Shown piece after piece: positions 12,363 through 44,430 of a DNA stretch of 64,000 bases. Every line of letters begins with the position of its first letter. Positions within the stretch are counted from its first letter, which is position 1. The DNA lies in NCBI GenBank assembly GCA_963621825.1, contig CAVFFP010000004.1:71718-135717 (forward strand), in the 5' to 3' direction. A model generated the notes under the pieces. It saw only the letters and a list, made by a program, of their open reading frames with translations. It was not told where the DNA came from and did not search any database. Origin of the DNA: a bacterium (GTDB lineage Bacteria; Bacillota_I; Bacilli_A; RFN20; CAG-288). The translations under genes were made by a program, and so were the position numbers.

Positions 12363-15215
12363 ATGAAAAAGAACAAAACCATGCTTCTTGTCTCCCTTCT
12401 TGCTTTATTGGCAACGGGCTGTGGAACTGTGACTTCTAATGACACAACAGCAACGGACAGCACGAAAGAGACAGAGAAAAAGACAGAATCTACTGACGTC
12501 AAGACAACTGACTATTATTTAGCAGGAAACATTGATTTAGGAGCGGATTCTGAAAAGAAATTCTCTTATGATGACGCTACTAAGACTTATCAGTTGGAAG
12601 GTATCTCTTTAAAGAGAGGAGATGCCTTTGTCATACGTGGAAGTGAAGGATTGGCAACAATCAACTTTGATTCCTTGATTTCTCAGACAGGATTTGAAAA
12701 GGGAAATGGTAATTATATTTCTGTTCTCAATGAAGGCATCTATACCTTGACCATTCAGGAAGGTTCTTTGGTTTTAGTCAAGACAGGATCTAACTATCAC
12801 AGTGTTAAGGTGGTCTATGAAGACGGAAGAGAGTCTCTTGATTTTGTCATGCAGGATGATTTCACCTTCACCCTTTCCGATGCTCCTATCCGTTACCGTC
12901 AGAAGTTCTATATCGACTTAGATGGTGAGAAACTTGGCTTTGATAGTCTTGCTTTCAACGAAGCCTATTATAAAGCGTTCCGCTTTGATGATAATTCCAT
13001 CGAATCCATCAAAAAGGGAAATTATGATTTCACAATCGACTTCTCTTTGAAGCAGCCTCTTGTCATCAGCTCTGAAGAGATTCAGGATGAGAATACAGCA
13101 CCTGTTGATGGTGATGCCTACTATCGCTATATCAAGCAGTTTGATGATCAGTTTGCTTCTAAGGGAAGCAAGTTCACATTGACATCTGAAACGACAACCG
13201 GAGATACCGTCTCTAAGAAAGTTGTAGAGGAAACATTGGATCTCAATCAGCATTACATCCATAGCGAATCCTATACCTATTCCGCAGATCAGACAAAAGA
13301 CGATGCAATTACAGAAGAAAAAGGAAAAGAGAAAGCATCTATCGACAAGAAAGAGGCTGTCATCACCGATACAAACTATTATCAGATCGCAACCTATGAC
13401 GGAACCTCTACAAACAAGCCTAGTGTAGATGGTGCTATCCTTGCTGAGGATGATATGGAAGATGAAGTTACCGAGGCAGAAGAAAACACGATGGTCTATC
13501 TTGACAGAAAGTATGTCACAAAGGATCAGGCGTACTCCAACATGATTTCCTATCAGTCCGAATACAAAAACGTAAATAGTTATTTAAACTATATGCTCGG
13601 ACATGCGCATGTTTCCGGAAGCTCAACATTATCTGACCAGCAGATCAGAGACAATCTTCAGGTTGAATATGAATATGTAGGAGATATCGGCGATGAGATG
13701 AAGGTCACATTCACCAACTATGAAATGGTCTATGTTTCCTATGGCACCTCTTATTATGCTACGGATGAGTTACAGATCACTGTCTCCGAAGAAGGACTTA
13801 TTACTGATGGTGTCTACAGCGTCAATGTATACTCCGGAAAAGTCTTTGATGATGATAAGAAACCGGTTGAAAATCTTGATGCGTTCCTCACTAAATCCGA
13901 GAAACATACCTTCCATATGGACTATGAGGCCAGAAAAGAAGTCAGTGAATTTGAAATCTCCGTGGAAAAGAATGTCGCATCTGAGATCGAAGCAGTCACG
14001 GAAGAAAAGAATGTCTCTTCTAAGACAACGAGCCTTCAGGCCTCTGACTTCGGTATTCTTGCCGTAACTCCTGCTGCTCCTCTTGATATCGGTAACTTCA
14101 AGATCATGGCTTATGATTCTAAGTTCTTCACCGAGAACTATAACAAGTCCTTAAGCGGAAGAGGTGTTGTCGGAACAACGGTCATCACAATCGGTAACGA
14201 ATACAATATGGTCACTTGCGATGTCACTGTCAATCTCACCTATGAAGAATACACAAGCAATAGCCAGTTCGGTTCCTTATACTGCGACAACAAATCCTTC
14301 ACCGGTGGCTATGTCGATGAAACTTATGATTTGGTTTTGACTCCTTATGCAGGTTATGATCCTACGGATATTCAAATCACGGCATCCAGCGATGCTATCA
14401 CCATCTCGGATATGAACTCCGATGAGGATAAGAAGACCACAGGAAAGATTACATTCAAGCTCACTATGAATAGAGCGGAGAGCGGTGTCACATTGAATTT
14501 AGTCTCTAAGAGCAAACCGTCTATCTCTAAGTCCATCGCTTTGACAATCAGCGAACCTTGGACAACGGAGAAGGCTGCTGGTGTCTACTGCAACTCCTCT
14601 ATTTATAGCATTACGATGAGCGAAGTCGTTCTGAATTCCGATGGAACAGGAACGATGAAAGTCGGTACAAGCTTCACTTCCTATATAGAGCACTCTTTCC
14701 AGTATGCTATCGATGGGGCAGGTGCAATCAGCTTAGTCTCTTCCGATACGATCACAGAACTCTCTATATCCATGCAGACTTCGAAGTCTATCTCTGCTGA
14801 TAGTACAGGCAGTACAAAACTCGAACATAAAACACTCAAGGTATCTAAAGTAGTCATCGATGGTGAAAATAAGGCATCTGGATACAATAACACCTTCAAT
14901 CAGATTGCTCCGATATTCAATACTGCAAACTATGTCATCACAGACGATTCTGGTGTGACGTATACCTTTGTCAAATGCGAGATGAGTGAGTGGTATACAG
15001 GTGTCATCTACTTCACCGATGGTACAAAGACTAGCAAGTTTACAATGAAGACACCGAGCAGCGAATATTCTTCCTACGGATGCAATCCTACCAATTACTA
15101 CGAAGATAGCACAAGTTCTAGTTATACGAAATATTCAGGAACCTACACTTATACGTCTGGTGTCTATACTGTCACATTCGATTCTAAGAAGTTCATCTTC
15201 ACTCCTAGAAGCTAA
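12363..15215 (+). CDS. Large surface lipoprotein (950 aa), function unknown
   Basis: Signal peptide with lipobox LLATGCG. Ser/Thr/Asp-rich extracellular protein. Confidence 0.7.
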   Translation: MKKNKTMLLVSLLALLATGCGTVTSNDTTATDSTKETEKKTESTDVKTTDYYLAGNIDLGADSEKKFSYDDATKTYQLEGISLKRGDAFVIRGSEGLATINFDSLISQTGFEKGNGNYISVLNEGIYTLTIQEGSLVLVKTGSNYHSVKVVYEDGRESLDFVMQDDFTFTLSDAPIRYRQKFYIDLDGEKLGFDSLAFNEAYYKAFRFDDNSIESIKKGNYDFTIDFSLKQPLVISSEEIQDENTAPVDGDAYYRYIKQFDDQFASKGSKFTLTSETTTGDTVSKKVVEETLDLNQHYIHSESYTYSADQTKDDAITEEKGKEKASIDKKEAVITDTNYYQIATYDGTSTNKPSVDGAILAEDDMEDEVTEAEENTMVYLDRKYVTKDQAYSNMISYQSEYKNVNSYLNYMLGHAHVSGSSTLSDQQIRDNLQVEYEYVGDIGDEMKVTFTNYEMVYVSYGTSYYATDELQITVSEEGLITDGVYSVNVYSGKVFDDDKKPVENLDAFLTKSEKHTFHMDYEARKEVSEFEISVEKNVASEIEAVTEEKNVSSKTTSLQASDFGILAVTPAAPLDIGNFKIMAYDSKFFTENYNKSLSGRGVVGTTVITIGNEYNMVTCDVTVNLTYEEYTSNSQFGSLYCDNKSFTGGYVDETYDLVLTPYAGYDPTDIQITASSDAITISDMNSDEDKKTTGKITFKLTMNRAESGVTLNLVSKSKPSISKSIALTISEPWTTEKAAGVYCNSSIYSITMSEVVLNSDGTGTMKVGTSFTSYIEHSFQYAIDGAGAISLVSSDTITELSISMQTSKSISADSTGSTKLEHKTLKVSKVVIDGENKASGYNNTFNQIAPIFNTANYVITDDSGVTYTFVKCEMSEWYTGVIYFTDGTKTSKFTMKTPSSEYSSYGCNPTNYYEDSTSSSYTKYSGTYTYTSGVYTVTFDSKKFIFTPRS

Positions 15216-18743: not shown

Positions 18744-20249
18744 TTATTCATGTGGAACGCAGAAGGAAGGGATGGTAGTTGTGTTGTAATCTTTGATTGT
18801 AGTTGTATAGGTACGTGTTGCGTAGACGGTCGTTGTGGAATCATCAAGATAGTAATTTCCAGTCAAAGAGTTTTCGAAATTCTTAAATGTTCCGTCCTTG
18901 TTCAGATTGATTGTGAAGTCACCGCTTGTCGGCTGATTGATGTATTCCTCAAAGGTGTTCATGGAAAGCATGGCAAGAGTTTTGTAAGTAGTATATGGAG
19001 TAAAGGAGTTGTCCAAGTTGTCTTTGAAGCATTCGACAGCAAGACTTCCGATCTTCGGCGCACAGTCGAGGAAGCTATCTCCGATTTCAGAGTCAGAGGA
19101 GATACCCCAATATTTCTTCAGTTCATCTTTTCTTACGAAAGCGTGAGTGTCATCCGCCATATAACGGTAGATGTAGGTCTTTCCGCCTTCAAACTGATAG
19201 GCGAGATTGTACTTGTATTCCGTATATTCGTCATCATCTGTTTCTGGAGCGATGAGACCGGTGAACTCATAGGTGTTATAGATGATCTGGTTTTCGAAAT
19301 CGACTAAGAATTCATAGGAGGTTCCACTAAGCTGAGAAACATCATAGCTGACATCGATATGCATGGTGTAGTTCTTCATATCGGTATTGTCATAGCGATA
19401 CGGTTTTAAAGCCTCAGAGAGAGTATCATGACCGTCTGTATGCTCTAAAGGCACGATTTCACGAGGCTCTGTCATTCCAAGGTCAGAAACATCGAGTTCG
19501 AACATGACACCTTCATAATAGTAGGTTCCATCATCTTCGCTGATTTCAAGCTCAAGGATGAAACGGAACTGATCGATTTCATCTCCGTTGAAATGGAGAG
19601 CGAACTCGCTGACAGTCGGAGTGTAATCATAATCTCCGTAATAAGGGTGACTTGGTGTATATCCAGGAAGTCCAGTAGTCTGATATCCAGTGAGATAGTA
19701 GACAATCTGGGAGGCGAGAGTGCTGTATTTTGTGGAAATGAGATACCAGTTCGGTTTTTCACGGATGGCGCTGAGGCATTCGACCTTCAGTTCACGGAAA
19801 GGTGTATCCATGACTTCCGCATATTTCTGAGAGGTCTTAGTCTCTACGATCTCATTGTCGAGAGGATTGAGCGTTCTTGAATAAAGGTAGCCGTCATCAC
19901 CGGCGAAGAAATTTTCTTCTGTTAAGGTTTCACCTGTGATGTAATCTGCCTCTGAATAATAGTAAGCAGTGGAATCGATCTCTGCGAGAACATCATACTC
20001 ATTTTGAGTATCATTGGTTCCGTCATAGGTCTGATGGCTGAGCTTTCCGGTCAAGGTGAAGCTTTGAGTGAGATCTTCTAATGCATAGGTGAGCTGCTCG
20101 TAAACATTCGGTTTTCTGCTGCTGGATGCGGATTCCGATTGTTTGTCGGTGGTTTCCTGAGAATCGATAGCAGAGTCACTGTTTGTGGTACCTTGACATG
20201 CACATAGTGCAAGCATTGTAAGTATCAACGGGATTTTGTTTTTCTTCAT
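18744..20249 (-). CDS. Lipoprotein (501 aa), function unknown; first gene of a three-gene lipoprotein operon
   Basis: Signal peptide MKKNKIPLILTMLALCACQG. AAAGGAGG RBS upstream. Its stop abuts the start of the next gene. Confidence 0.7.
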   Translation of the reverse strand: MKKNKIPLILTMLALCACQGTTNSDSAIDSQETTDKQSESASSSRKPNVYEQLTYALEDLTQSFTLTGKLSHQTYDGTNDTQNEYDVLAEIDSTAYYYSEADYITGETLTEENFFAGDDGYLYSRTLNPLDNEIVETKTSQKYAEVMDTPFRELKVECLSAIREKPNWYLISTKYSTLASQIVYYLTGYQTTGLPGYTPSHPYYGDYDYTPTVSEFALHFNGDEIDQFRFILELEISEDDGTYYYEGVMFELDVSDLGMTEPREIVPLEHTDGHDTLSEALKPYRYDNTDMKNYTMHIDVSYDVSQLSGTSYEFLVDFENQIIYNTYEFTGLIAPETDDDEYTEYKYNLAYQFEGGKTYIYRYMADDTHAFVRKDELKKYWGISSDSEIGDSFLDCAPKIGSLAVECFKDNLDNSFTPYTTYKTLAMLSMNTFEEYINQPTSGDFTINLNKDGTFKNFENSLTGNYYLDDSTTTVYATRTYTTTIKDYNTTTIPSFCVPHE

Positions 20250-21616: not shown

Positions 21617-21668
21617 AAGAAAGCAAGAAAGAAAAAGCATATGCCACAGATTATGACATATGCTTTTA
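21617..21668 (-). terminator. Rho-independent terminator ending the CooC/Hgd-like operon
   Basis: Stem aagcatatg / catatgctt with a 13-nt loop, followed on the minus strand by a T-rich run. Confidence 0.5.
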
Positions 21669-21669: not shown

Positions 21670-22377
21670 TCATTGATTTGCTTTATGAATCGCTCTCATA
21701 CCTTCGATTTCATCGCAGATATCGCGGAAGGAACAGGTTCTGCAGTCCATCTTCAGCTTCTTCATGATGTGATCTAAGGTGACTGTGATTCTTTCGCTCT
21801 CCTTGGAGAGTTCAAGAAGCTTGTTGTGCGGGAAATTAGGAGCAGTGATGAAGACCTGACGGACATAGCGGACATGAGCTTCCTTCTTGAACTGCTTGAG
21901 GAAGGACATTCCGATATCCTTGAAAGAGAGACCATCCTTAATCGCATCATCGGATACACAGGCACCTTCTCTTAGAAGATTGGTGTTCACCTTCAGCATA
22001 TAGCCTTCTGGATTGACTTTATAGCGTCTGTATTCAATGTTGCGGAAGATACGGTAATACTCCTGATCCTTAACATCATTCTCATTGTCGATTTCAAAGA
22101 GATAGATGTGGGAGAAAGGAACATCTCCTTTTAAGTCTTTCAGGTCATTGCCGATCAAGGCGATGGAATCCTTGCCTAAAGCGTTAGTCTGACTTGTGTA
22201 TCCGTAGAAATAGGATGACGGAAGAGAAGAATCACCTAAATGAATCCTGCAGTCCTCAGAAAAGAGGAATACTTTGCTCTCGCTTTCCTTCCAAGAAGAT
22301 TCAAGAGGAAGTTCTTTCGTTTCGAAAGGAGAAGTAAGAGAGAGGACATCATCGATGCATTTCTGATAGAGTTCCAT
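21670..22377 (-). CDS. Hypothetical 235-aa protein, last gene of the CooC/Hgd-like operon
   Basis: I recognise no family. C-terminal CRTCSFRDIC. Its start lies 2 nt after the stop of the upstream small ORF. Confidence 0.5.
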   Translation of the reverse strand: MELYQKCIDDVLSLTSPFETKELPLESSWKESESKVFLFSEDCRIHLGDSSLPSSYFYGYTSQTNALGKDSIALIGNDLKDLKGDVPFSHIYLFEIDNENDVKDQEYYRIFRNIEYRRYKVNPEGYMLKVNTNLLREGACVSDDAIKDGLSFKDIGMSFLKQFKKEAHVRYVRQVFITAPNFPHNKLLELSKESERITVTLDHIMKKLKMDCRTCSFRDICDEIEGMRAIHKANQ

Positions 22378-23371: not shown

Positions 23372-24919
23372 TTACCAACGATTGACATCGTCCATATCGA
23401 CTAAGGATTCATCGAGAGGTGTTTCACGAAGAACCGTCTTCATGTAACGGTTGACATCTTCTCTCATATCTTTTCTCGTGGCCTTTGTCGGATTCATCAA
23501 GGCGTGATAGACCCAAACGATATGGATGCCTCTCTTTCTGCCTTCCTCTTCCAACAAGCCGTGATAGCCAGCCATGGATTTGCATCCGATGTGTTCATAC
23601 ATGATGACCATGTCGGCTTTGTATTCTTCACAATACTGCCAGAGCTGTTCGACACCGACTTCATAACCGCCATTGGAGTGGTTACGCATAATCATATTCA
23701 TATTGTATTCGCCTAAGTCGAGAAGTGCCTGGTCATGGTCTTCGTAGTTGATCGGCTTGGTGAGAGTGAAGGAGAGCATGTCGCAAAGACAAACGATACC
23801 CCAGCAGTTGGAAAGCCACTGGTTGAAGGCGGTATAGTACTGAGCGTGAACACCCCAGACAAGAGCGCGGTGACGGATTTCCTTGATCGGGAGATGCTTT
23901 TCCTTGTAGGCTTTCTTTGCAATGTCCGTGATCTGCTGATCAAGCTTTAAGAAGGACGGATCTCTTCCAGAGATGACCATGTATTCGGCATCGCGGTAGA
24001 GCATGATGTTGTTGTTGACGACCTGCGGGTATTCGGTCTTGTTCATTTCCATCCACTCTTCGAAGAGTTTGTTCTGGGCATTGTATGTCTTCATGTTCTT
24101 AGCGAAGGCATCCCAATCCCATTTTTCACCGGTATGCTTTTCAATGAATTTGATGGCTTCGACAATCTGATCTCTGGAATAGGCTAAGACGGATTTCTGC
24201 TGATGACGCATCGGAGCGGCCATGGTGAAGGAGGGAAGATCATCGTGTCTGTCTTCAATCTGGTTACCCATCAAAGAGCCGTCGCAAGTTGTGTTGCAGT
24301 GAACGGCACAGACACCGCAGATCGGATAATCCTCATCGATGGCACAGCCTAATTCTGCACAAGGCATCGGGCAGACATCGGAAGGAATCTGGAACTCTTC
24401 AGCGACTTCGATGTAGTGAAGGACACCGTCCTGAGCAATGGTGCTTCCGGTGTAGATAGCAGGAACTTCCTTTGAGAGGAACTTCAGGTTCGGGAAGCCG
24501 GTCGCAATGACCATCATTCCGTTTTCATCCATGATGACGAGCTTCTTATTCAGTTCATCATATTTTCCCTTTTTGTTTCCGATTCTCTTATCACATTTGA
24601 ATAAGGTGTCCATTGTCTGAGTTAGATGTTCGACAATGGAGTCGTATTGGATGTGTCCAATTCTAAGCTGCGGACCTCTTACACCTTCTAAGTGTCTATC
24701 GATATAGTCGAAGGCGGCAAGATAGTTGCCGAACCAACGGTAAGTGAACATCGCCTTGAGAGTCGTTGGCTTCATGATGAATTTTCCCATGACCATGAGG
24801 TTCTTCAGCCAACGGGAGAAATCATACATTGTATCTTTGAAACCACGCCATTCACGATGGGTCGCTGTCTTCTTGCCAGGCTTATTGGTGCTGCCTAGTC
24901 CTTTTTTCTTCTTATCCAT
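23372..24919 (-). CDS. 2-hydroxyacyl-CoA dehydratase / benzoyl-CoA reductase family subunit (HgdA-like, 515 aa) with a Cys-dense motif
   Basis: HgdA/HadB-like length and composition. Motif CPMPCAELGCAIDEDYPICGVCAVHCNTTCDG has 7 Cys in 31 residues. AAGGAGG RBS upstream. Confidence 0.75.
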   Translation of the reverse strand: MDKKKKGLGSTNKPGKKTATHREWRGFKDTMYDFSRWLKNLMVMGKFIMKPTTLKAMFTYRWFGNYLAAFDYIDRHLEGVRGPQLRIGHIQYDSIVEHLTQTMDTLFKCDKRIGNKKGKYDELNKKLVIMDENGMMVIATGFPNLKFLSKEVPAIYTGSTIAQDGVLHYIEVAEEFQIPSDVCPMPCAELGCAIDEDYPICGVCAVHCNTTCDGSLMGNQIEDRHDDLPSFTMAAPMRHQQKSVLAYSRDQIVEAIKFIEKHTGEKWDWDAFAKNMKTYNAQNKLFEEWMEMNKTEYPQVVNNNIMLYRDAEYMVISGRDPSFLKLDQQITDIAKKAYKEKHLPIKEIRHRALVWGVHAQYYTAFNQWLSNCWGIVCLCDMLSFTLTKPINYEDHDQALLDLGEYNMNMIMRNHSNGGYEVGVEQLWQYCEEYKADMVIMYEHIGCKSMAGYHGLLEEEGRKRGIHIVWVYHALMNPTKATRKDMREDVNRYMKTVLRETPLDESLVDMDDVNRW

Positions 24920-24921: not shown

Positions 24922-26118
24922 TTACTTGGCCTCCTTGTCTTTCTGAATCTTCTTGATTTCAAGCGCTTCGATGAAGGCCTGGATTCTTGTTCTCAACTGA
25001 CCGGACTGACCGACGTTGTATGGGCGGTCGATGGAAAGAGTCTGATAACCATATTCATTCTGCATGACAGCGTTCATGAAGGCTCTTCCATATCCCCAAT
25101 AATCACAGAATTTGATCTGTTCGATGATAATGCCGTCGACATGATATTCTTTGCCAATCTTATCGACATAGGCGTGTCTTTCGTTGACTTTCTCCGTTGT
25201 GAGGAAACGAGGGCACTGTCCGCTTTCCATATAATAGCGGCAGACCTGAGTAAGAGCATCTTCCTCATCGTTGAGGATGATTTCCTGTCTTCCCGGAAGG
25301 GAGCCAAAGCAATATCTGTCAGCGACGACGACAAGTCCGCAGTCCTCTGCCAATTTGATCAGCTGCGGATCATCGATTTCACTGCCGACCATAGCGACAC
25401 GGCAACGATAGGTACCCTTCTTGTCCGGGACACGGTTTCTGACCTCTTCCAAAGTCTCCGTGAGTTTCTCGATGAGTTTATCCTTCGGGCAGCAGTATGT
25501 CGCTAAGCAAAGGACAGCAAACTCATAACCGGTGATTCTAGGGCATTCTTCTTTTCTGAAGTCGCCGATTTCGGTGATGAGCTTGGAAATCTTATTTTGC
25601 TCTTCGACAGCTTTTCTGATGGCTGCATCACTGATATCGATATTGTAGTGTTCGTTAAGAGGCTTTAAGACGTGTTCCTGCATCTGAAGGATATAGTGCT
25701 TCAATGTGACGTCATCTGATTTCATCGGAACATCGACATAGGAAGCGAAGAATCCTTCCTTCGGGCAGCAATCGAGATGCTCGATGTTTTCGACACATCG
25801 GTTCATCATTGCACATGCTTCCGGTGCGATGATGCCATCAAGGAAACGGAATCCGCCTTCTAGTGCTCTCTCTAAGATGGCACGACAGGCTTCACAGAAA
25901 ATAGGGGAAAGATAATAGTTTCCCATTTCCGTAGAACCTGTTCTTGGAGCACGAAGTCTTACAGAGAAGATGCCAGGGAGGTTAAGAAGAGGTTCCGGAA
26001 TCTGATAGCAGACATGTCCGATTGCCTTTCTTCCTTCGTTCTGTGCTTCTTCGATGAGATCGTTGTTGGAATTCTCTAACAGCTTTTCAAAATAGTATAG
26101 GTGCTTCAGGTCTCTCAT
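24922..26118 (-). CDS. 2-hydroxyacyl-CoA dehydratase / benzoyl-CoA reductase family subunit (HgdB-like)
   Basis: About 398 aa from the ATG at 26118 (AAAGGAGAG RBS). The ORF-track start at 26133 is GTG. Multiple conserved Cys, including CxxC. Confidence 0.7.
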   Translation of the reverse strand: MRDLKHLYYFEKLLENSNNDLIEEAQNEGRKAIGHVCYQIPEPLLNLPGIFSVRLRAPRTGSTEMGNYYLSPIFCEACRAILERALEGGFRFLDGIIAPEACAMMNRCVENIEHLDCCPKEGFFASYVDVPMKSDDVTLKHYILQMQEHVLKPLNEHYNIDISDAAIRKAVEEQNKISKLITEIGDFRKEECPRITGYEFAVLCLATYCCPKDKLIEKLTETLEEVRNRVPDKKGTYRCRVAMVGSEIDDPQLIKLAEDCGLVVVADRYCFGSLPGRQEIILNDEEDALTQVCRYYMESGQCPRFLTTEKVNERHAYVDKIGKEYHVDGIIIEQIKFCDYWGYGRAFMNAVMQNEYGYQTLSIDRPYNVGQSGQLRTRIQAFIEALEIKKIQKDKEAK

Positions 26119-26129: not shown

Positions 26130-26891
26130 TCACTCTTGAAGTATATGAATTTTAGTTAATGCTTCTTTGGTACCCTTGACGATGCTGCTGTCCTTAGGAA
26201 GATAGAAGACATTCTCACCTTCCATATCATAACGGGCAAGTTCATCATCAGAAGGAATCTTGGACAATACCTTCATATTGTCAAAGTGATAATCCTCTTC
26301 CATAGCCTGTGAGGAGAGGCGGTTTAAGATGACACCAATCTCTTCATACATGACAAGGTCATCGGCAACAGTCTTGATGGTCTTGATGACCTGCTGACCC
26401 TTTTTGGACTGATCACTGATCAAAAGGAGATGGGTAACCTTTTCCATGACTCTTCTGTTAATCTGCTCAATGCCGGCTTCTCCGTCGATGACGACAAAAT
26501 CATAATGGGAAGAGATAGAAGAGATGACATCCTTGAGATAAGTGTTGATTTTGCAGTAGCATCCGCTTGCCTCCGGTCTGCCGATGGCAATAAAGGTAAA
26601 ACCGTTGGAATGAACCATAGCCTCTTCGATGGAATAGCTTGCGTTTCCTAAAACTTCAACAACGGCATTTTTGCCCTGTTCGCTTGCAGCGATGGCCTCT
26701 TTTCTTACATCATCGATTGTCTTATCGTATTCGATTCCAAGTGCGGTGGATAAACCGACTGCGGGATCTGCGTCAATAGCCAAAATCTTCTTGTCCGGAT
26801 AATTGTCGACCAAAAGTCTGACAATGCACGCGGCGATGGAAGTCTTTCCGACTCCACCTTTTCCAGCAACTGCAATAATAGATGTTTTCAT
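26130..26891 (-). CDS. CooC-type MinD/ParA-superfamily ATPase (metallocentre insertase-like)
   Basis: Deviant Walker A AVAGKGGVGKTS at the N-terminus of the 254-aa form starting at 26891 (AAAGGA RBS). CxC motif GCYC, as in CooC/AcsF Ni-insertases. The ORF-track start at 26981 is probably an upstream extension. Confidence 0.65.
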   Translation of the reverse strand: MKTSIIAVAGKGGVGKTSIAACIVRLLVDNYPDKKILAIDADPAVGLSTALGIEYDKTIDDVRKEAIAASEQGKNAVVEVLGNASYSIEEAMVHSNGFTFIAIGRPEASGCYCKINTYLKDVISSISSHYDFVVIDGEAGIEQINRRVMEKVTHLLLISDQSKKGQQVIKTIKTVADDLVMYEEIGVILNRLSSQAMEEDYHFDNMKVLSKIPSDDELARYDMEGENVFYLPKDSSIVKGTKEALTKIHILQE

Positions 26892-27029
26892 CGCGAATAC
26901 AGTCCTTTCAATTTGAGTATAAGAATATGATACAAAAAGGGCTTTCAATTTGAAAGAGGTTTCACGAAAAATTTTGCGCATTTGTGCAATAAAATGTTCA
27001 AAATTTTATATTTGAATCTTTTTATTTCC

Positions 27030-27060
27030 ATGAAAAAAGGAGCCAAATGGGCTCCTTTGA
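27030..27060 (-). terminator. Rho-independent terminator after the dipeptidase gene
   Basis: 9-bp stem aaaggagcc / ggctccttt with a 5-nt loop. On the minus strand a T6 run follows. Confidence 0.6.
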
Positions 27061-28535: not shown

Positions 28536-28738
28536 AATTGTCTCCTTAGTAAATGATCGGTATCCATTTTAAATGTTTTCTCGTTTTATATCTATGTATT
28601 TGATAAATCAAATAAAAGTAGAACAGCAAAAGCGCTTTTTCATAAAAGTTTTTTAATGAAATGAGAGAAAACACTTGAAGTGATGTTGAAAATATTATAT
28701 ACAATACAAGTTTTAAGGTTCAATTAAGGAGAATGTAT

Positions 28739-30871
28739 ATGAAAAACAAGATAAAGATTATGTTGTTGCCGCTTCTTGCTCTGATGAGTCTCACTGTCGT
28801 ATCCTGCGGAGGAAACAGTGACTCCAGCAAGCCTTCCGATTCCGAAAGTCAGACCACTGCAGATAAGGAATCTGAATCCAAGAAGGAAGAGACAAAATAC
28901 CAGGTCAGCTTCAATAAGTCCGACAAGGTCGAACTTTCTGTCACTGGATTAGAGAGCGATAAAGCTCTTCCGGGAAGTGAAGTCACCTTCACTGTCACAA
29001 GTCAGGAGGAAGAAATCCTTTCTGTCGATTCTTCCGTTGCTCATTTGGATTATGAGAATGGTGTCTATTATTTCACCATGCCGAATCATGATGTCACAAT
29101 CGATGTCGTTTCTGAGGCCTATGGAGATCCTTCTATTCTTGATGTTAAGGATGTCGATACTACCTCTCTTCCGAACAACGTTTCTTCTTTTACCGCATAT
29201 TTAGAAAAGTCGATGGCTGTGGAAGGCACATATTTCTCTTCCGCTCATGTTGTAAACAACAACTTCAATGGAACTGCTGCCTGGTACGATTACAACGTCA
29301 AAGCCGCTAAGAATGATATGGTTCTCATCTCTGGACATAAGAAGAACTACCTCAGTGATACCATGAGTACGTTCTACTCCAAGGAAATCGGAAGAGAAAA
29401 TGATATCTATTACACTATCACATCTACAACATCTTTAGGTTCCTCTGCTAATACAATTGCCAATGATTATGTATTCAAAAACATCATTTCCGATGATGCT
29501 GCAGCCGTTGGCGTTAATCAGATTAAGGAAAGTGATGCAAAAGCCGAATACTCATCCTATCAGGGCGCCGCTGTTATTTATAACTTTTTCTTCAGCGAGA
29601 ATGCTTCTTTTAAGCTGAATGAATGGACACATGAGTTACAATCCTATACTTATTATCTAAAGGATATGGAAAAGACCGTATCCGATGATAAAAAGTCAAT
29701 CCGTTTTGATTTGACTGCACTTTTTTGTAATTGGAACGGAACTTCAATTTTTAATATATCGTTGGAGTTTGACGGCGACAATTTCATGCAGAATGCTAGC
29801 ATTAGCAAGACAGACTACGACTCCGCCGATTGTGATTCCACGACAAAGATGCCTCTAGATGGCAAAACTGGAAAACTGATGGCAACCTACAATCTTGAAA
29901 TGACTCGTGGTTATAAGTCCACGATGGAAAAAACTGATATCTCTTCCTTTGCAATGGATAGTTATGATGTTTCTATCTCCTACTCCATTAACGGGGAAGA
30001 AAAAGAAACAGATAGCAATGATGTTGTTGTTGATAATGGTTCTGAACTCAAGTTTGCTTTTAACTCCAATGATGATAAGGCAACCTTCGTTGAACCTACA
30101 TTGAAGGAGGTTGAGGAAGAAGATGATTACGTCGATTTGAAAACACTCACCGTTCTCAAAGAGGGTGAATTCACTTTAGTTTTCGACAATGGATTCGGTG
30201 TAGAGAAGAAAGTTAAAATCAAATCCGTGAAGCCGAAAGCGGCCTCCATCTCTGTCAGTGCACCTTCTAGTGTCTATCTGAATGAAACAAAAAACATGAC
30301 AGTCTCTATTCTCCCTGAGAAAGCAAATCAGGATGTCACCTTCACAAAGAAGGATACTTCTGTTGGTGACGCAACCATCACTAAGAATGATGATGGCACC
30401 TACGCGATTCAGGGTGTAAAACTCGGCGAAGTTTCCTATACCGTCACCAGCGTTGGAAATGATGAGATTACAGAAGAGTTCACATTCAATGTCATTGAAA
30501 AACCGGATGCCGAAACTTTTAAAAACAATGTTTTCACAAAGACTTTCTACGGTGAATCTACAAGCTACAAGGCCGTTGCTAATTTCAATGAGGAAGGCTC
30601 TGGCGAATTCAAGACTGCTTCTAATGGTTATTATTCTTACTATGAAGCCGTAAGAACGTTCCATTGGACATTCGACGAAGCTTCTTTGACCTTCACTATC
30701 ACGGATGCTACTGGAAGCTATTATGATGGAAGAGGCTTCTTTACCTTCTCTGCTGTCACAGCAGAAGAAGCTATCGGTTCCTTCGTTGAATATAACTATT
30801 ATGGCAATAAGACAGAGTTCACTCTCAATATGACTTCTCAGGACAGAAAAGATCTTTCTGAATTCAACTGA
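28739..30871 (+). CDS. Surface lipoprotein with C-terminal Big_2-like domain
   Basis: Lipobox LTVVSCGGN. AAGGAGA RBS favours the ATG at 28739 over 28733. Ig-like segment near residues 480-570. Confidence 0.7.
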   Translation: MKNKIKIMLLPLLALMSLTVVSCGGNSDSSKPSDSESQTTADKESESKKEETKYQVSFNKSDKVELSVTGLESDKALPGSEVTFTVTSQEEEILSVDSSVAHLDYENGVYYFTMPNHDVTIDVVSEAYGDPSILDVKDVDTTSLPNNVSSFTAYLEKSMAVEGTYFSSAHVVNNNFNGTAAWYDYNVKAAKNDMVLISGHKKNYLSDTMSTFYSKEIGRENDIYYTITSTTSLGSSANTIANDYVFKNIISDDAAAVGVNQIKESDAKAEYSSYQGAAVIYNFFFSENASFKLNEWTHELQSYTYYLKDMEKTVSDDKKSIRFDLTALFCNWNGTSIFNISLEFDGDNFMQNASISKTDYDSADCDSTTKMPLDGKTGKLMATYNLEMTRGYKSTMEKTDISSFAMDSYDVSISYSINGEEKETDSNDVVVDNGSELKFAFNSNDDKATFVEPTLKEVEEEDDYVDLKTLTVLKEGEFTLVFDNGFGVEKKVKIKSVKPKAASISVSAPSSVYLNETKNMTVSILPEKANQDVTFTKKDTSVGDATITKNDDGTYAIQGVKLGEVSYTVTSVGNDEITEEFTFNVIEKPDAETFKNNVFTKTFYGESTSYKAVANFNEEGSGEFKTASNGYYSYYEAVRTFHWTFDEASLTFTITDATGSYYDGRGFFTFSAVTAEEAIGSFVEYNYYGNKTEFTLNMTSQDRKDLSEFN

Positions 30872-32757
30872 TGAAAAAGAATTGTATTGGATTATCGTTT
30901 CTTGTTCTGTCACTAGTCGCCTGTCAAGGTGGAGGAGATTCCTCCGCCTTGAAACCGACGGAATCCGCAAATGCGGAGAAAACGGAGACAACAGGCGAAA
31001 CAACTTCTCAACAAAAAGAGAAACTTGAATTTGAACCAGCTAAGACAATCAGTAATCTTTTCGACTATCTGAATACAACAGGAAGAGAAATAGAGAATAC
31101 GGATGGTATCATCTTTGACAGAAACTATTATTCCTATGAGGTCGGATATTATACGTTCAATACGATAGAGAAGAGTGAGAATGGTGAGTCTTTTGATAAT
31201 GATTCCTATTTCGTTTATGGAACGGAGTCTAAGACAACCACTTATGACTATAAGGATGATGTCGATAAGGTAGAAGACTACTATATGTGCCTGAATCAGT
31301 TGGATGGAAATGACTACTACTCCATTGTGGATTATGATGATGGCAAAGATAGAGATACGGCAAACAAAGAGACAGTTTTGGTGACAAATAGGGATTCCTA
31401 TTTGGCAAAGACGAATCTTAATGCTTTGGATTCCCTTTATACTTTCTATAAATCGAAAGTCTCCAAGAACATCATCAAAGGCGTCGATGATATCACACCG
31501 AATATCACGGATAAAAATACGGTTGAGTATCATATCGCTCAGGGATGGGAAGAGACAATCGGCGATTACAAGTATAAGTATGCCGCTATCATCGATCTTT
31601 CTTTGGATTACAAGGGAAGACTGACCAAGTATAGTTATAACTTCAAAGAATATCAGCCCTCTACGGAAGAAGGCGGCAATGATTTTCTTCTCAGTGAAAT
31701 CAAGGATGAAGTCGAAATCCAGTTCGGAAATAAGATCACATACGATTATTTCGAAAAGGTCCAAAATGGTGAAAAAGCAATTGATCCTCTTGATTACTTC
31801 ATGACGGATTACACTCCGGTATTGTTGTCCTGGGATGGTGTCGGAACAGAGAAGACTAAAGAGGATGCTCTTAGTTTCCCTATCAACATGTATGTTGAGG
31901 CTGAGGCCACAGAGATTGTTCCTGAAAAGGCTTTGGATACGAAGTTGACTGTCACTGATAGCACGGATAAAAGTGTTATCTCTGTCACATCTTCTGGTAT
32001 TGTAAAAGCAGTCGGATTAGGTGAAACCACCCTTACCATTCAATCGGAATCCGGTGTCACTACGAAGATGAATGTCAAGGTTGTCTCTCCTGCTTTACAG
32101 GAGATTGTCGCTAAAACTTATTCTACGTATCATTTCAAAGGGGATACCGATACTCTCTATATCTATAAGACTCCTTCGAATTCCTTAGAGGAGATTGAGG
32201 TCGTCTCATTGACAGAGGATGTCATTGAAGTTGTCAAAGACAAAGATGGTGATTATGCTTTGCATAACATCGGAGTCGGAGAAGGAACCGTCGAAGTAAG
32301 AAGCAAGACGAATCCTACAGTGAAGTGCACGGTCTCTTATTCTGTCGTAGAGAAGAAGACAGTCGAAGAAGTCAAAGCCAATGTCGTCGGAACATGGGAT
32401 GGAGACCTTCCGAATACTAGTGGTACAGGGATGGTAAAGGATGCCGCTACAGTTATCTATAATGATGATGGCACCGGTAGCTTCACTTTGAATAGTTCCG
32501 ATACGGGTTACACCTTTGAAGTCGGAAAAGCCTATCCATTTACCTATACCTTCTTAGAAAACGGAAGATATGTGGATAGACCTGTCTCCCTTACGATGTC
32601 TACGATTACTTTGGATCATGGACAGGTTGTCTGGACGTATTCCGCAAATGCTGCTGACTTCTATTACACGGGCGAGAACGCAAATATCATCTTCGCAACG
32701 GGAAATTCAGAAGAATACGGCGCAATGGTGCAGTTATCTGCAAGACGTGTCGCTTAA
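30871..32757 (+). CDS. Surface lipoprotein with two Big_2-like domains
   Basis: Lipobox LSLVACQGG. Its start overlaps the previous stop by 1 nt (TGATG). Repeated VTxxDxxVISVTSSGxVKAVGLGETTLT-like segments. Confidence 0.7.
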   Translation: MKKNCIGLSFLVLSLVACQGGGDSSALKPTESANAEKTETTGETTSQQKEKLEFEPAKTISNLFDYLNTTGREIENTDGIIFDRNYYSYEVGYYTFNTIEKSENGESFDNDSYFVYGTESKTTTYDYKDDVDKVEDYYMCLNQLDGNDYYSIVDYDDGKDRDTANKETVLVTNRDSYLAKTNLNALDSLYTFYKSKVSKNIIKGVDDITPNITDKNTVEYHIAQGWEETIGDYKYKYAAIIDLSLDYKGRLTKYSYNFKEYQPSTEEGGNDFLLSEIKDEVEIQFGNKITYDYFEKVQNGEKAIDPLDYFMTDYTPVLLSWDGVGTEKTKEDALSFPINMYVEAEATEIVPEKALDTKLTVTDSTDKSVISVTSSGIVKAVGLGETTLTIQSESGVTTKMNVKVVSPALQEIVAKTYSTYHFKGDTDTLYIYKTPSNSLEEIEVVSLTEDVIEVVKDKDGDYALHNIGVGEGTVEVRSKTNPTVKCTVSYSVVEKKTVEEVKANVVGTWDGDLPNTSGTGMVKDAATVIYNDDGTGSFTLNSSDTGYTFEVGKAYPFTYTFLENGRYVDRPVSLTMSTITLDHGQVVWTYSANAADFYYTGENANIIFATGNSEEYGAMVQLSARRVA

Positions 32758-36477: not shown

Positions 36478-37992
36478 ATGGCGATAGAAGTACAACCTTA
36501 TCTTCCTGACGAAGATTATGATAATCCAGCAATGGTGACGGATTTTTATGAATTCACCATGGCAAATTGCTTATACCTTCACGGATATAAAGATACTGTG
36601 ATGGTTTTTGATATGTTCTTTAGAAAGAATCCGGATAACTTAGGATATTCTATATCCTGTGGACAGAGAAAACTGACGAAGTTCTTGATGGAATATCACT
36701 TCACTGAAAAAGATATCCTTTGGCTCAGACATAAAGGGATGAGCGAAGAGTTTCTTGAATATCTGAAGAATTACAGATGGAAAGGGACGATGTACGCTTT
36801 AAAGGAAGGTACGGTCTGTTATCCTCAGGTGCCTATGGTCAGAATCGAATGCGATATGGTCGGTGCCATCCTGATTGAAACCTATCTCCTTCAGACGATG
36901 AATTTCCACTCTCTGATTGCAACAAAGGCGACGAGAATCTCTGGTCTTGCCACACACAGCAAAAGACAGGTGATGGAATTCGGAACACGCCGTGCACAGG
37001 GAGAGAGTGCCGGAAACGATGGTGCCTATGCTGCTGTCTTAGGTGGATGCATTGCAACGGCAAACTGCTTAGCGGAGATGAAATATGGAGAGGATGTCAA
37101 AGCGGTCGGAACGATTGCACACTCCTTCATCGAATTCTTCCCGGATGAGCTGAGCGCATTCCGCGCCTATGCGGAAACCTATCCAAATAGTGTCTCCCTT
37201 CTTTTGGATACCTATAACGTTTTTGAATCGGGACTTGTCAATCTGATCAAGGTGGACGATGAGATGATTGTAAAGTATCCGAATGATCCAAATAAGAGAG
37301 TTAAAGCGGCTAGAATCGACTCCGGAGATTTGGCAAGAAGTTATAAGAGACTTAGAAAAGCGTTGGATAAAGCAGGCAAGCCTTATATCAAACTCGTAGC
37401 CAGCAATTCTCTCGATGAGACAAAGATGGCAAATATGGAAATCTATGAGGATGCCCATTTTGACAGTTATGGTGTCGGTGAAAATCTGATCACATCCAGA
37501 ACGGATCCTGTCTTCGGAGGTGTCTATAAGCTCGTCGCTGTCAAGGAAAAGGACGGAAGCTATACACCGAAGATGAAATGTTCGGAATCCTCTTCGAAGG
37601 CGATCATCCCCGGTAAACTGATGGCTTATCGTTTCTTTGATGAGGAAGATAAAGGCCAGTGTGATGTCATCTGTCTCGATGATGAAATCATCGAAGAGAA
37701 GAAACCAATCAAAGTCTATAATCTCGATCGAGATGATTTCAGAACGTATCGCATTCTGACTCCGAACAGAGTCGAAAAGCTTTTGGTTCCTTATCTTGTC
37801 GATGGTGAACTTGTCATAGATCTTCCCTCTATCAAAGAGAAGAAAGAATATATCAAAGATCAGCTAGAACATCATGTCTGGGAGAGTGAACTGAGAAAGG
37901 AAATGCCTCATGTCCACTATGTTAATCTCAGCGAAAAAGTCTACCGGATGAGAGAAAGCATGTATAAGAAGCTCCACGGAGGAAATCTCTGA
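36478..37992 (+). CDS. pncB: Nicotinate phosphoribosyltransferase
   Basis: 504 aa, NAPRTase-family length and motifs. Operon context with nadD and nadE. Confidence 0.8.
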   Translation: MAIEVQPYLPDEDYDNPAMVTDFYEFTMANCLYLHGYKDTVMVFDMFFRKNPDNLGYSISCGQRKLTKFLMEYHFTEKDILWLRHKGMSEEFLEYLKNYRWKGTMYALKEGTVCYPQVPMVRIECDMVGAILIETYLLQTMNFHSLIATKATRISGLATHSKRQVMEFGTRRAQGESAGNDGAYAAVLGGCIATANCLAEMKYGEDVKAVGTIAHSFIEFFPDELSAFRAYAETYPNSVSLLLDTYNVFESGLVNLIKVDDEMIVKYPNDPNKRVKAARIDSGDLARSYKRLRKALDKAGKPYIKLVASNSLDETKMANMEIYEDAHFDSYGVGENLITSRTDPVFGGVYKLVAVKEKDGSYTPKMKCSESSSKAIIPGKLMAYRFFDEEDKGQCDVICLDDEIIEEKKPIKVYNLDRDDFRTYRILTPNRVEKLLVPYLVDGELVIDLPSIKEKKEYIKDQLEHHVWESELRKEMPHVHYVNLSEKVYRMRESMYKKLHGGNL

Positions 37993-38606
37993 TGAAGGCT
38001 CTCTTCTTCGGAGGTGCCTTCAATCCACTGACTAATGCCCACCTCTTTCTAGCCGAAGAGGTTAAGGATGCTTTTTCTTTTGACAAAGTGTTCTTTGTTC
38101 CGACGAAGTCAAAGTATATACTGAAGACAGAAGAGAAAGAGTTCTCTTTTTCAGAAGAAGAGAGATTATCTATGCTAAAGGATGCTGCTAATGCCCATGA
38201 CTTTATTCAAGTGAGTGATATTGAAATAAAAGAGAAAGAACAGCCTAGAACCTATCTCACTATGAAAAAGATTCAGAAAGAAGGATATGATCTTACATTG
38301 ATGATTGGATCGGATTGGTTATCTTCTCTCCGTACCAAGTGGATGTATATCGATGAGATACTAGAGGAGTTCTCACTTCTGGTCATCCGAAGAAATCATG
38401 ATGATATCGATAAGATCATAGCTGATGATCCCTATCTCTATGAGAGAAGAAATAAGATGAGATTCTATGATCCGAAAGGAGACTATCAGAATGTATCCTC
38501 TTCTTATGTCCGTACACTATTGAAGGATTTCAGAAAAAATGAAGAAGAGATCAAATCTCTTGTTCCAATTCAGGTCTATGATGATATAAGGAGAATGCGA
38601 AGATGA
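37992..38606 (+). CDS. nadD: Nicotinate-nucleotide adenylyltransferase
   Basis: FGGAFNPLTNAH nucleotidyltransferase (H/T)xxH motif. TGATG overlap with pncB. Confidence 0.85.
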   Translation: MKALFFGGAFNPLTNAHLFLAEEVKDAFSFDKVFFVPTKSKYILKTEEKEFSFSEEERLSMLKDAANAHDFIQVSDIEIKEKEQPRTYLTMKKIQKEGYDLTLMIGSDWLSSLRTKWMYIDEILEEFSLLVIRRNHDDIDKIIADDPYLYERRNKMRFYDPKGDYQNVSSSYVRTLLKDFRKNEEEIKSLVPIQVYDDIRRMRR

Positions 38607-40552
38607 AAAACAGCATGCTGAAAGTTAGCCTTGTCGTTCCGAAGATGAAAGTCGGTGATGTGACCTATAATGCAAATGAGATCATCTCTATGCTGCATCA
38701 GATATCCAATAATACTGCCATTGCTCTTTTTCCGGAACTTTCCTTGACTGGATATACGGCTCAGGATCTCTTTTTTCAGTTGCCATTACTAAATGAGACG
38801 GAACAAGCGATTCATCTAATTAAAAAAGAAACGAAAAGTTTAGATACCCTTGTTGTCATCGGTGCCCCTTTAAGAAAAGGAAATAAGTTATATAACTGTG
38901 CTGTCTTTATTCATCATGGAAAAATCATTGCGGTAGTTCCGAAATCCTATGTTCCAAATTATGGTGAATTTTATGAAAGACGTTGGTTTGATTCCGGGAA
39001 AGACATTAAGAAGGATACGATTGCTATTCTCAATGATGTCGTTCCTTTTGGAACTGATATCCTTATTGAAGATAGTAATAGTGTAGCTAGAATCGGTGCT
39101 GAAATCTGTGAGGATCTTTGGGTTGTGGATAAGCCGAGCAATCACATCGCTTTAGCGGGTGGAAATATCATCCTGAATCTTTCTGCTAGTGATGAGACAA
39201 TTCAGAAATCAGAATACAGAAGAAACTTAGTTTCCGTTCAGTCTGCAACGACGTATTCCGCTTATCTATATTGTTCCTCTGGAAATGAGGAAAGCAGTAC
39301 TGACCTTGTCTTTTCCGGTCACTGCATGATTGCAGAGAACGGAACAATGCTGAAAGAAAAGAAATACAGTGAAGCTGGTTCTATTCTTACTGCAATCATC
39401 GACTTAGATAAGATTGAATACAATCGACTTCATCAGATGACCTTTGAAAACAGCAAGGAAGAATATCGACATATTTCTGTTTCTCTTCCTTCTTATTTTT
39501 TAGGTGATGGTGTCGTTGAGAAAGCGAAACAGTTAAACGAGGATTCTTATCCTATCTCCCGTTATCCTTTCGTTCCTAGTAAAGAGGAAGAGAGAAAGAA
39601 CCGTTCTCTTGAAATTCTTCAGATTCAGGCACATGGTTTAGCGACTAGAGTCAAGAACACAGGGCTGAAGAATCTTGTCATCGGTATATCTGGCGGACTA
39701 GATTCGACATTGGCTCTTCTTGTTGCTAGCGAAGCAAAGAAGATCATTCCGGATATCCATATCATCGGTGTCACGATGCCAAATACTGGAAATACCTCCT
39801 CTGTCACATATGAGAATTCTTTATCCCTGTTAGATCAGTTAGCGGATGAGAAGAAAGAAGTAGTCATCACAAGGACAGTAAAAGACCATCTCGAAGATAT
39901 CGGACATTCCTTAGACTATAACGGAGAAGGAGATGTCGCCTATGAGAATGCACAGGCAAGATATCGTACTTATGTGTTGATGGACTTGGCCAATATGAAT
40001 CATGGCCTTGTAGTCGGTACCGGGGATTTAAGTGAGCTCGCTTTAGGCTGGTGTACTTATAACGGAGACCATATGTCGATGTACGGAGTCAATTCCTCCG
40101 TTCCAAAGACACTAGTCAAATACATTGTAGAAACCTACGCAAACTATTTAAGCTCTGAGAAGCTGAAGAACACACTTTTAAGTATTATCGATACTCCAAT
40201 CTCTCCGGAACTTACTCCGAACAAGGACGGAAAGATTGAACAGAAGACAGAGGATAAGATTGGAAAATATGATTTGAATGATTTCTTCCTCTATTATGTT
40301 CTTCGTTATGGGTATGACGCAGAGAAGATAATCGTCTTTGCTCTTGCTGCCTATCCGGAATTGAATTTAGAGACAGTAAAAGATGCTTTGATCCGTTTCT
40401 TTCAGAGGTTTTATTCCCAACAATTCAAGAGAAGCTGTCTTCCGGACGGGGTGAAAGTTGGTAGTGTTACTCTTTCTCCTCGCGGTGACTTCAGAATGCC
40501 AAGTGATGCTAGTAGCAGAATGATGGTTGAAAAAATCAAAGATTGTAAGTGA
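38603..40552 (+). CDS. nadE: Glutamine-dependent NAD+ synthetase (nitrilase domain + NAD synthase domain)
   Basis: 649 aa. SGGLDST PP-loop motif in the C-terminal half and an N-terminal CN-hydrolase domain. Overlaps nadD by 4 nt. Confidence 0.9.
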   Translation: MKNSMLKVSLVVPKMKVGDVTYNANEIISMLHQISNNTAIALFPELSLTGYTAQDLFFQLPLLNETEQAIHLIKKETKSLDTLVVIGAPLRKGNKLYNCAVFIHHGKIIAVVPKSYVPNYGEFYERRWFDSGKDIKKDTIAILNDVVPFGTDILIEDSNSVARIGAEICEDLWVVDKPSNHIALAGGNIILNLSASDETIQKSEYRRNLVSVQSATTYSAYLYCSSGNEESSTDLVFSGHCMIAENGTMLKEKKYSEAGSILTAIIDLDKIEYNRLHQMTFENSKEEYRHISVSLPSYFLGDGVVEKAKQLNEDSYPISRYPFVPSKEEERKNRSLEILQIQAHGLATRVKNTGLKNLVIGISGGLDSTLALLVASEAKKIIPDIHIIGVTMPNTGNTSSVTYENSLSLLDQLADEKKEVVITRTVKDHLEDIGHSLDYNGEGDVAYENAQARYRTYVLMDLANMNHGLVVGTGDLSELALGWCTYNGDHMSMYGVNSSVPKTLVKYIVETYANYLSSEKLKNTLLSIIDTPISPELTPNKDGKIEQKTEDKIGKYDLNDFFLYYVLRYGYDAEKIIVFALAAYPELNLETVKDALIRFFQRFYSQQFKRSCLPDGVKVGSVTLSPRGDFRMPSDASSRMMVEKIKDCK

Positions 40553-41875: not shown

Positions 41876-41956
41876 AATTGGCTCCTTTCTATTGGATACT
41901 GCTATTATAGTCGACTGATTTCTTGTTTGCTAATAAAGATTTGGGGATAGAATGGC

Positions 41957-41980
41957 TTTATAATTGTTAACAATTATAAA
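41957..41980. promoter_or_regulatory. Perfect 24-bp palindrome upstream of fucO (candidate operator)
   Basis: tttataattgttaacaattataaa equals its own reverse complement. It lies about 80-105 nt upstream of the fucO ATG. Confidence 0.4.
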
Positions 41981-42103
41981 TAAATTCGCATTGAAAAAAA
42001 CTTGATCTTTTACAAGGCAGGGACAATGATTTGAGGTATTCTTTATCTTTAAAATGCTTAGTCTAGTTTGATGAGATTACAAAAGCAATTAGTGTTTTTA
42101 CGG

Positions 42104-44420: not shown

Positions 44421-44430
44421 GGAAAACAGA

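Follow-up and report, generated by a model that had tools for sequence, protein, structure and literature searches.

What does an ATPase of the CooC type serve where no carbon monoxide dehydrogenase (CODH) is encoded nearby? CooC1 and CooC are the nickel-insertion ATPases for the C-cluster of CODH, and their paralog AcsF matures acetyl-CoA synthase (ACS) by inserting nickel into its A-cluster. To our knowledge, no other members of this ATPase class have been characterised, and the nickel clusters served by CooC and AcsF both belong to CODH/ACS. A gene for a CooC-like protein lies within a 64,000-nucleotide (nt) stretch of contig CAVFFP010000004.1 (assembly GCA_963621825.1, positions 71,718 to 135,717), the whole of which is referred to here as the window. 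The gene was found to head a conserved operon that also encodes relatives of the subunits of benzoyl-CoA reductase (BCR) and a stand-alone homolog of the ACS middle domain, which may be the client of the ATPase.

A six-gene operon headed by a CooC-like gene

Six closely spaced genes on the minus strand, overlapping or at most 14 nt apart, begin with the CooC-like gene. The operon and its boundaries comprise the following features (lengths in amino acids, aa):

26927-27058 as listed, minus strand: intergenic region upstream of the CooC-like gene, 171 nt
26130-26891, minus strand: CooC-type P-loop ATPase, 253 aa; ATG at 26891, stop codon ending at 26130
24922-26118, minus strand: BzdN/HgdB-like subunit (PF06050), 398 aa from the ATG at 26118, the start used by gene callers; the mechanical open reading frame (ORF) begins at a GTG at 26133
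23372-24919, minus strand: BzdO/HgdA-like subunit (PF06050, residues 168-471), 515 aa
22560-23357, minus strand: HgdC/HadI/MbdQ-type ATP-dependent activase (BcrAD_BadFG), 265 aa
22379-22558, minus strand: hydrophobic peptide, 59 aa, with one hydrophobic N-terminal helix and a basic C-terminus; no Pfam family
21670-22377, minus strand: ACS-like protein, 235 aa, the last gene of the operon; ACS middle domain and C-terminal motif
21633-21667, minus strand: terminator-like hairpin with a 16-bp stem and a T-rich tail, directly 3' of the ACS-like stop codon; 3' end of the operon

Because of the overlaps and short gaps, together with the hairpins that bound them, the six genes are read as one operon. 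On the upstream side, a hairpin at 27036-27058 closes the gene for a C69 dipeptidase and separates it from the operon. Two weak promoter-like matches precede the CooC-like gene (27030-27003 and 26954-26927), a count no higher than in shuffled sequence, and a search of the operon leader for riboswitches and other RNA regulators gave no Rfam element at gathering score. The start at 26891 is also used by independent gene calls on near-identical contigs; a longer ORF extending to 26981 was not chosen by the gene callers. The nearest relatives of the window are contigs of uncultured gut Bacilli, known from metagenome-assembled genomes (MAGs), with 98-99% identity.

Classification of the ATPase

The deviant Walker A motif of the ATPase, AVAGKGGVGKTS, carries the signature lysine and starts at G10 (GKGGVGKTS). 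It is accompanied by the switch motifs DADPA and DGEAGIEQ and by the segment GCYCKIN, which holds C111-Y-C113, a predicted metal site at the dimer interface. The Pfam scan placed the protein among the P-loop ATPases of the CbiA/AAA_31/ArsA_ATPase group, and none of the NCBIfam models reached its cutoff. In a phmmer search of the PDB, the best match was CooC1 of C. hydrogenoformans (3kje, 61 bits, E 1.3e-15), followed by ArsA, MinD, Soj and Get3, all at 33 bits or less. The alignment placed C111-Y-C113 in register with C112-Y-C114 of CooC1, column for column, and the same register was obtained in an alignment with 20 canonical CooCs. These results bear out the sequence-only reading of the locus, which had taken the protein for a CooC-like ATPase from its Walker A (KGGVGKTS) and its CxC cysteines. 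Walker A, DADPA, GRPE..GCYC..N.YL and DGEAGIEQ do not vary among 80 homologs taken from genome loci or among 38 from databases, and the CxC is therefore not a chance motif match. The protein has more than 7,400 database matches.

Canonical CooCs, recovered with the CooC1 sequence as query, were aligned jointly with the window family. A neighbour-joining tree with a single MinD outgroup separated the two sets into two clean clades, with mean identities of 65% within the window family, 62% within the canonical set and about 26% between them. Since such a tree is insufficient by itself to establish affinity with CooC, we relied on motif sharing and the phmmer scores. The motifs G-x-x-CYC-x-x-N-x-(Y/F)-L and AGIE(H/Q)-x-x-R are common to both clades and are not found in MinD. 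Like CooC1 and the CooC of R. rubrum, the window protein has about 250 aa, a deviant Walker A, CYC in register and an AGIE switch II; its family differs in switch I, which reads DADPAVG instead of the canonical D(G/A)DPD(S/A)C, and in never adjoining Prismane/CODH in the loci examined, whereas the canonical control does. This control, CooC P0174 of D. gibsoniae, lies directly upstream of a Prismane CODH, a full-length ACS (CODH_A_N + CdhC + ACS_CODH_B_C), CdhD and a second CbiA ATPase. Linkage to cooS or full-length acsB, the genomic context of the CooC/AcsF family, was absent from the window subfamily in the loci examined. By its signature motifs and best sequence match, we classify the protein as CooC-type and as a member of a distinct subfamily.

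An ACS middle-domain homolog ends the operon

The 235-aa product of the last gene is a distant homolog of the ACS middle domain by Pfam scores, a family profile and a structure search. The window protein itself scores 14.3 bits (E 0.037) against CdhC PF03598, below the cutoff of 24; orthologs in related loci are flagged by this family, and two pass it with 33.3 and 27.1 bits. A profile of 18 family sequences matched the middle domain of Moorella ACS (residues 329-480) in the PDB at E 1.3e-8 to 2e-8. An AlphaFold model (AF2), built from an alignment of database matches (pLDDT 86, pTM 0.83), was searched with Foldseek; the top 22 matches were all ACS (E 2.7e-9 to 1e-4), and the next had an E of 0.24.

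The family ends in an invariant motif, D-C212-x2-C215-x5-C221-D-x2-E-G-x4-H231. In the ACS of D. gibsoniae (locus L166; L numbers designate our loci), C508-x2-C511-x8-C520-x9-C530 ligate the cubane and C597-G-C599 forms the nickel site. The hidden Markov model register, in which profile position 180 corresponds to ACS residue 473, sets C212 within about 3 residues of C508. From position and spacing only, the tail thus looks like a cubane-binding loop with a Cys-to-His change at the fourth ligand, C-x2-C-x5-C-x9-H against the C-x2-C-x8-C-x9-C of ACS. The protein has neither the N-terminal nor the C-terminal domain of ACS and no PF19436 match, and ends 14 residues past its third Cys. At E <= 1e-3 the family comprises 548 clusters at 50% identity, and each of the best 150 is a protein of about 230-250 aa that stands alone. 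In public records, ACS-middle-domain proteins of 235-246 aa are named 'carbon monoxide dehydrogenase' (NCBI) or 'hypothetical protein' (e.g. L004:8732-9448, L105:8001-8741).

Gene linkage across genomes

A genome collection was scanned with the CooC-like protein, yielding 80 loci with one genome per species, and the six-frame ORFs of these loci were searched with the window proteins. Fifty of the loci extended 5.5 kb or more beyond the CooC-like gene on its downstream side and gave the following counts:

ACS-like gene beside the CooC-like gene: 50/50
Activase: 47/50
Homologous peptide ORF of 55-59 aa between activase and ACS-like gene: 47/50
Both PF06050 subunits (HgdA and HgdB): 45/50
HypA: 9/50
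IsrA-like oxidoreductase: 7/50
CobW: 4/50

The shared gene order recurs in Bacilli MAGs, Christensenella-like bacteria, Acutalibacteraceae, Lachnospiraceae, Pseudobutyrivibrio and Dorea. Five loci (L046-48, L052 and L084, three of them within the 50) are two-gene modules, in which the ACS-like gene directly follows the CooC-like gene and no other member of the set is present; the neighbours of these modules are unrelated genes, such as those for PEPCK and MatE on either side of the pair in L084. In L103 and L142 the pair stands in reverse order, with the CooC-like gene immediately downstream. Two Pseudobutyrivibrio loci, L075 and L085 (e.g. L085:9980-12952), carry genes for the CooC-like protein, the activase, the small peptide, the ACS-like protein and HypA, without PF06050 and IsrA-like genes.

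A reverse search of metagenomes with the ACS-like profile gave 26 loci with adequate flanks, comprising 12 with the full cluster, 2 with the pair, 1 with the activase only and 11 with no partner within 8 kb. From their near-identical match scores and source names, the 11 partnerless loci appear to be repeat samples of one abundant human-gut contig of Oscillospiraceae type. The solitary ACS-like protein retains the Cys3His motif. A CooC-like gene of this family was thus never seen without an ACS-like gene, and the reverse does not hold; such one-way linkage is what a chaperone and its client would be expected to show. Across some 130 related loci, with up to 10 kb of flanking sequence, no CODH adjoined any member of the CooC-like family, and all-against-all ORF clustering of 160 loci revealed no recurring gene family beyond the six genes.

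These data also bear on the remaining claims of the sequence-only reading. It had reported neither CODH nor ACS in the 64 kb; a Pfam scan of essentially all ORFs of at least 150 aa likewise found no Prismane/CODH and no full-length ACS in the window, but a homolog of the ACS middle domain is encoded at 22377-21670, in the same operon. The HgdAB-like context that it described is there, as two PF06050 HGD-D proteins and a BcrAD_BadFG activase downstream. It had left open an orphan CooC or a protein recruited to another metalloenzyme. The orphan does not match a gene locked in a conserved operon with the full set in 45 of 50 species-level loci, while recruitment fits the conserved operon, the low identity to canonical CooCs and the place of the canonical control beside CODH/ACS. 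As the partner in this context, however, the HgdAB-like enzyme gives way to the ACS-like gene, which is constant in all 50 loci, including two-gene modules that lack HgdAB.

Further features of the related loci were recorded. The Oscillospiraceae/Clostridiales-type contig with the solitary gene (L104-L118, L131, L135, L137, L161) occurs on at least 1000 contigs; in it the ACS-like gene sits between genes for a TPM-domain protein and DegV, with no HgdAB-like, activase or CooC-like gene within 8 kb (e.g. L105:8001-8741), and L103 and L142 are close relatives of this type. In some Lachnospiraceae, a CobW-family GTPase gene lies upstream of the six-gene cluster, and genes for HypA and a flavoprotein of about 935 aa (Fer4/Fer4_20/Pyr_redox_2) lie downstream (L001:7329-16399; also L003-L005, L031, L037, L069, L070, L073, L079, L082). 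The flavoprotein resembles IsrA, a putative isoprene reductase of Acetobacterium wieringae. The cluster was also present in 'cleanbin' MAG records (L007, L010, L014, L015, L017, L065) titled Alistipes onderdonkii, Escherichia coli, Paludibacteraceae, Prevotellaceae, Bacteroidales and Bifidobacteriaceae. At the protein level these contigs are 62-98% identical to the Bacilli and Clostridia versions, and the organism labels look unreliable or the bins contaminated.

Reductase subunits, activase and small peptide

The 398-aa subunit scores 266 bits against the HGD-D family of Pfam, and its best PDB match is BzdN (8s02_B, E 2e-23), followed by HadC and DCCP. In BzdN, the ligands of the [8Fe-9S] double cubane are C36/73/100/263/293/327 (PMC11971306). 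C42/80/107/275/307/343 of the 398-aa subunit align with these one-to-one and are exactly the cysteines that are invariant in 66 homologs, and the subunit is accordingly predicted, from sequence, to carry a double cubane of this type.

The 515-aa protein, presumed to be the catalytic subunit, begins with a Trp-rich extension of about 160 aa that lies ahead of the HGD-D domain, and its PDB matches (DCCP 6eno and MbdO 9g87) are weak. Its invariant cysteines are 183, 204, 212, 372 and 446; within the Cys-dense stretch at residues 183-212 (CPMPC..GC..ICGVC..HC..TC), only C183, C204 and C212 are invariant. The activase passes TIGR00241 with 216.9 bits (cutoff 125.4) and matches MbdQ, HadI and HgdC in the PDB at E 1e-57 to 1e-60. 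Its invariant C130 and C169 lie in the NDKC and CTVF motifs common to MbdQ and HadI. The 59-aa peptide is probably a membrane anchor, and its conservation suggests that the complex is tethered to the membrane.

All three larger proteins fall far below the named NCBIfam equivalog cutoffs; for the 398-aa subunit, the scores are 126 against 350 bits (double_cubane), 85 against 454 (BzdN), and 70 against 421 and 86 against 700 (BcrC and HadC models). We therefore take the two PF06050 subunits and the activase to represent an uncharacterised branch of the BCR/HAD/DCCP superfamily.

Proposed function and alternatives

We propose that the CooC-like protein is a maturation ATPase of the CooC/AcsF kind and has as its client the ACS-like protein of a BCR/HAD-type reductase, a reading to which we give about an even chance. 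By analogy with CooC1 and AcsF, the homodimer would close on binding ATP and clamp a metal ion, or a small cluster of metals, between its paired C-Y-C motifs at the interface, and ATP hydrolysis would pass this metal to the client protein. The most likely client would be the 235-aa protein with its C-x2-C-x5-C-x9-H site. We infer this relation of chaperone to client; by homology only, the metal would be nickel. The ACS-like protein would in turn serve an ATP-driven reductase composed of the BzdN-like subunit, the BzdO/HgdA-like catalytic subunit, the HgdC-type activase and the small membrane peptide. It may act as an electron-entry module, a role considered because no ferredoxin gene lies in the operon, or it may bind the substrate or CoA, a role considered because the ACS middle domain contributes to CoA binding. 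The types of cluster and the direction of electron flow in this scheme are likewise presumptive. In E. coli, no dedicated factor is needed for the [8Fe-9S] cluster of BzdNO to form (PMC11971306), which speaks against double-cubane assembly as the main role of the CooC-like protein.

Several observations weigh against the proposal of a CooC/AcsF-like maturation ATPase. The 26% identity to canonical CooCs is no higher than the 28% identity of the window family to the archaeal MinD of P. furiosus. When a structure model of the ATPase (pTM 0.88) was used in a fold search, all SIMIBI ATPases gave similar scores, with BchL, MinD and NifH above CooC1 (rank 26); with scores so similar, the fold cannot decide the subfamily. 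As regards nickel, the Pfam scan found no Ni transporter, Hyp, urease or hydrogenase genes among ORFs of at least 150 aa in the window, and the Cys-Gly-Cys motif that forms the nickel site of the A-cluster is missing from the ACS-like protein. The likeness of this protein's Cys tail to the ACS cubane loop is not significant in Smith-Waterman alignments with shuffles (z ~0), and in one common type of human-gut contig (L104-L118) the ACS-like gene has no CooC-like gene within 8 kb. A nickel link through HypA and CobW neighbours was considered and rejected: these are found in only 4 to 9 of the 50 loci, together with an IsrA-like oxidoreductase whose homologs are known to associate with HypA/HypB (PMC10134865), and the nickel chaperones at such loci are most simply explained as serving that oxidoreductase. 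L075 and L085 are odd in that HypA persists next to the ACS-like gene without an IsrA-like gene.

The main rival, which we consider unlikely, is an Fe-S carrier or NifH-like ATPase, in which a [4Fe-4S] or [2Fe-2S] cluster would be held between the two CxC motifs of the dimer, in the manner of NifH, BchL and Nbp35/ApbC, with no involvement of nickel; it could supply clusters to the ACS-like protein or the reductase, or deliver electrons as a second ATP-driven donor. The ranking of BchL, NifH and MinD above CooC1 in the fold search favours it, as does the predicted Fe-S richness of every other operon protein, including the six-Cys double-cubane site. The lack of a nickel-handling gene in the window points the same way, and so does an ACS-like protein that keeps only the cubane-like Cys3His and not the nickel site. 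On the other hand, the Pfam matches of the ATPase to NifH and ParA/NUBPL are below cutoff and confined to the P-loop region: Fer4_NifH PF00142 covers only residues 5-69 (21.4 bits, cutoff 25) and PF10609 (Mrp/NBP35/ApbC) only residues 2-54 (21.9 bits, cutoff 27.1). The NCBIfam models for nifH, BchL and CfbC reach 16-23 bits against cutoffs above 340, and the cluster cysteines of NifH and the CxxC of Mrp are absent. The CYC segment is common specifically to CooC1, which binds Ni/Zn at its CxC site (structures 3kje-3kji). BzdNO and DCCP, moreover, gain their double cubanes without such a factor (PMC11971306). Distinctly unlikely is a further possibility, in which the ATPase would load Ni or another heterometal on the Cys3His site and so create an A-cluster-like Ni-Fe-S centre from separate polypeptides, catalytic or substrate-activating within a double-cubane reductase.

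A MinD/ParA-like ATPase that positions or assembles the reductase, for example at the membrane via the 59-aa peptide, and delivers no metal, would account for the identity to archaeal MinD, for the conserved membrane peptide and for the top NCBIfam match, minD_arch TIGR01969. We hold it to be very improbable: this match lies far under its cutoff (55 against 202 bits; ParA_partition, 31 against 180), the invariant CxC and its flanks have no counterpart in MinD, the two-gene modules do without the membrane peptide, and no MinC/MinE-like or ParB-like partner is encoded in the operon. Scarcely credible is an ordinary CooC/AcsF acting on a CODH or ACS whose gene lies at another place in the genome, with the HgdAB-like neighbourhood incidental. 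Some sources do annotate family members as 'CO dehydrogenase maturation factor', but the shared gene order recurs from Bacilli to Dorea, the family forms a tight clade far from canonical CooCs, and, whereas the canonical control adjoins CODH/ACS, no CODH stands beside family members in the related loci.

Relation to known systems

Among known systems, AcsF is conceptually the closest case, with a CooC-type ATPase gene beside an ACS-family gene and a presumed role as metal loader; the presumed client here, however, is a 235-aa middle domain with a Cys3His tail. The 235-aa protein differs from ACS (AcsB/CdhC) in standing alone, without CODH, corrinoid protein or methyltransferase partners. With BzdNO, HadBC/HgdAB and DCCP the operon shares two PF06050 subunits and an HgdC-type activase, and with BzdN the full set of six double-cubane ligands in the 398-aa subunit. 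It differs from class I benzoyl-CoA reductase in having one activase gene instead of BzdPQ, and from BzdO/HgdA in the 160-aa N-terminal extension of its catalytic subunit. The BzdNO-like reductase genes are accompanied by no gene for a CoA ligase, a CoA transferase or a downstream pathway. We know of no BCR, HAD or DCCP system with CooC-like, ACS-like or membrane-peptide partners.

Homologs of the IsrA-like oxidoreductase are reported to adjoin HypA in 73% of cases (PMC10134865). The IsrA-like, HypA and CobW GTPase genes that flank the cluster in some Lachnospiraceae recall IsrA with HypA/HypB in Acetobacterium wieringae, but they are absent from the window and most loci and are probably a separate or auxiliary module; the extension may donate electrons to the cluster or be an independent neighbour.

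We found no description in the literature of CooC-type genes accompanied by HgdAB/BCR-like genes or by a gene for an ACS domain that stands alone. A study of CODH gene contexts mentions CooC-like genes only inside CODH operons (eLife 2026). The nearest literature concerns CooC in CODH operons, the double cubanes of BzdNO and DCCP, and IsrA; the operon thus consists of known modules in an arrangement that we did not find described.

Other genes of the window

The window contains a complete SUF operon for Fe-S assembly at 1589-6186 on the plus strand, followed by MnmG:

1589-2434, plus strand: SufC
2442-3116, plus strand: SufD-like protein
3113-4348, plus strand: SufS
4332-4784, plus strand: SufU/NifU_N
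4777-6186, plus strand: SufB
6189-8075: MnmG

An L-rhamnose utilisation cluster spans 40730-46559:

40730-41875, minus strand: Fe-ADH
42104-42862, minus strand: DeoR regulator
43137-44420: RhaA
44431-45246: class II aldolase
45243-46559: FGGY kinase

An NAD salvage set lies at 36478-40552 and consists of NAPRTase, a cytidylyltransferase-like protein (presumably NadD) and NadE. Six large ORFs of 501-950 aa have no Pfam match at E 1e-5 (12363-15215, 18744-20249, 28733-30871, 30871-32757, 54747-56630 and 60776-63028). The three whose translations were inspected (18744-20249, 28733-30871 and 30871-32757) all start with lipoprotein-like signal peptides, with a Cys after a hydrophobic stretch, and these large ORFs may encode lineage-specific surface proteins of this gut Bacilli lineage.

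Implications

The public names 'CO dehydrogenase maturation factor' and 'carbon monoxide dehydrogenase' for these proteins could wrongly imply CO metabolism in gut Firmicutes. A separate, conserved CooC subfamily with a different partner would mean either a new client of nickel insertion or the reuse of the CooC scaffold in the assembly of another metal cluster. If a split Ni-Fe-S centre were indeed formed, the nickel enzymes concerned would be a class not recognised before, and a widespread one among gut Firmicutes without the Wood-Ljungdahl pathway. The operon suggests that human and animal gut Firmicutes commonly carry a metalloenzyme system not yet described, and its CooC-like and ACS-like genes offer a testable entry to an uncharacterised low-potential redox enzyme of the gut microbiota.

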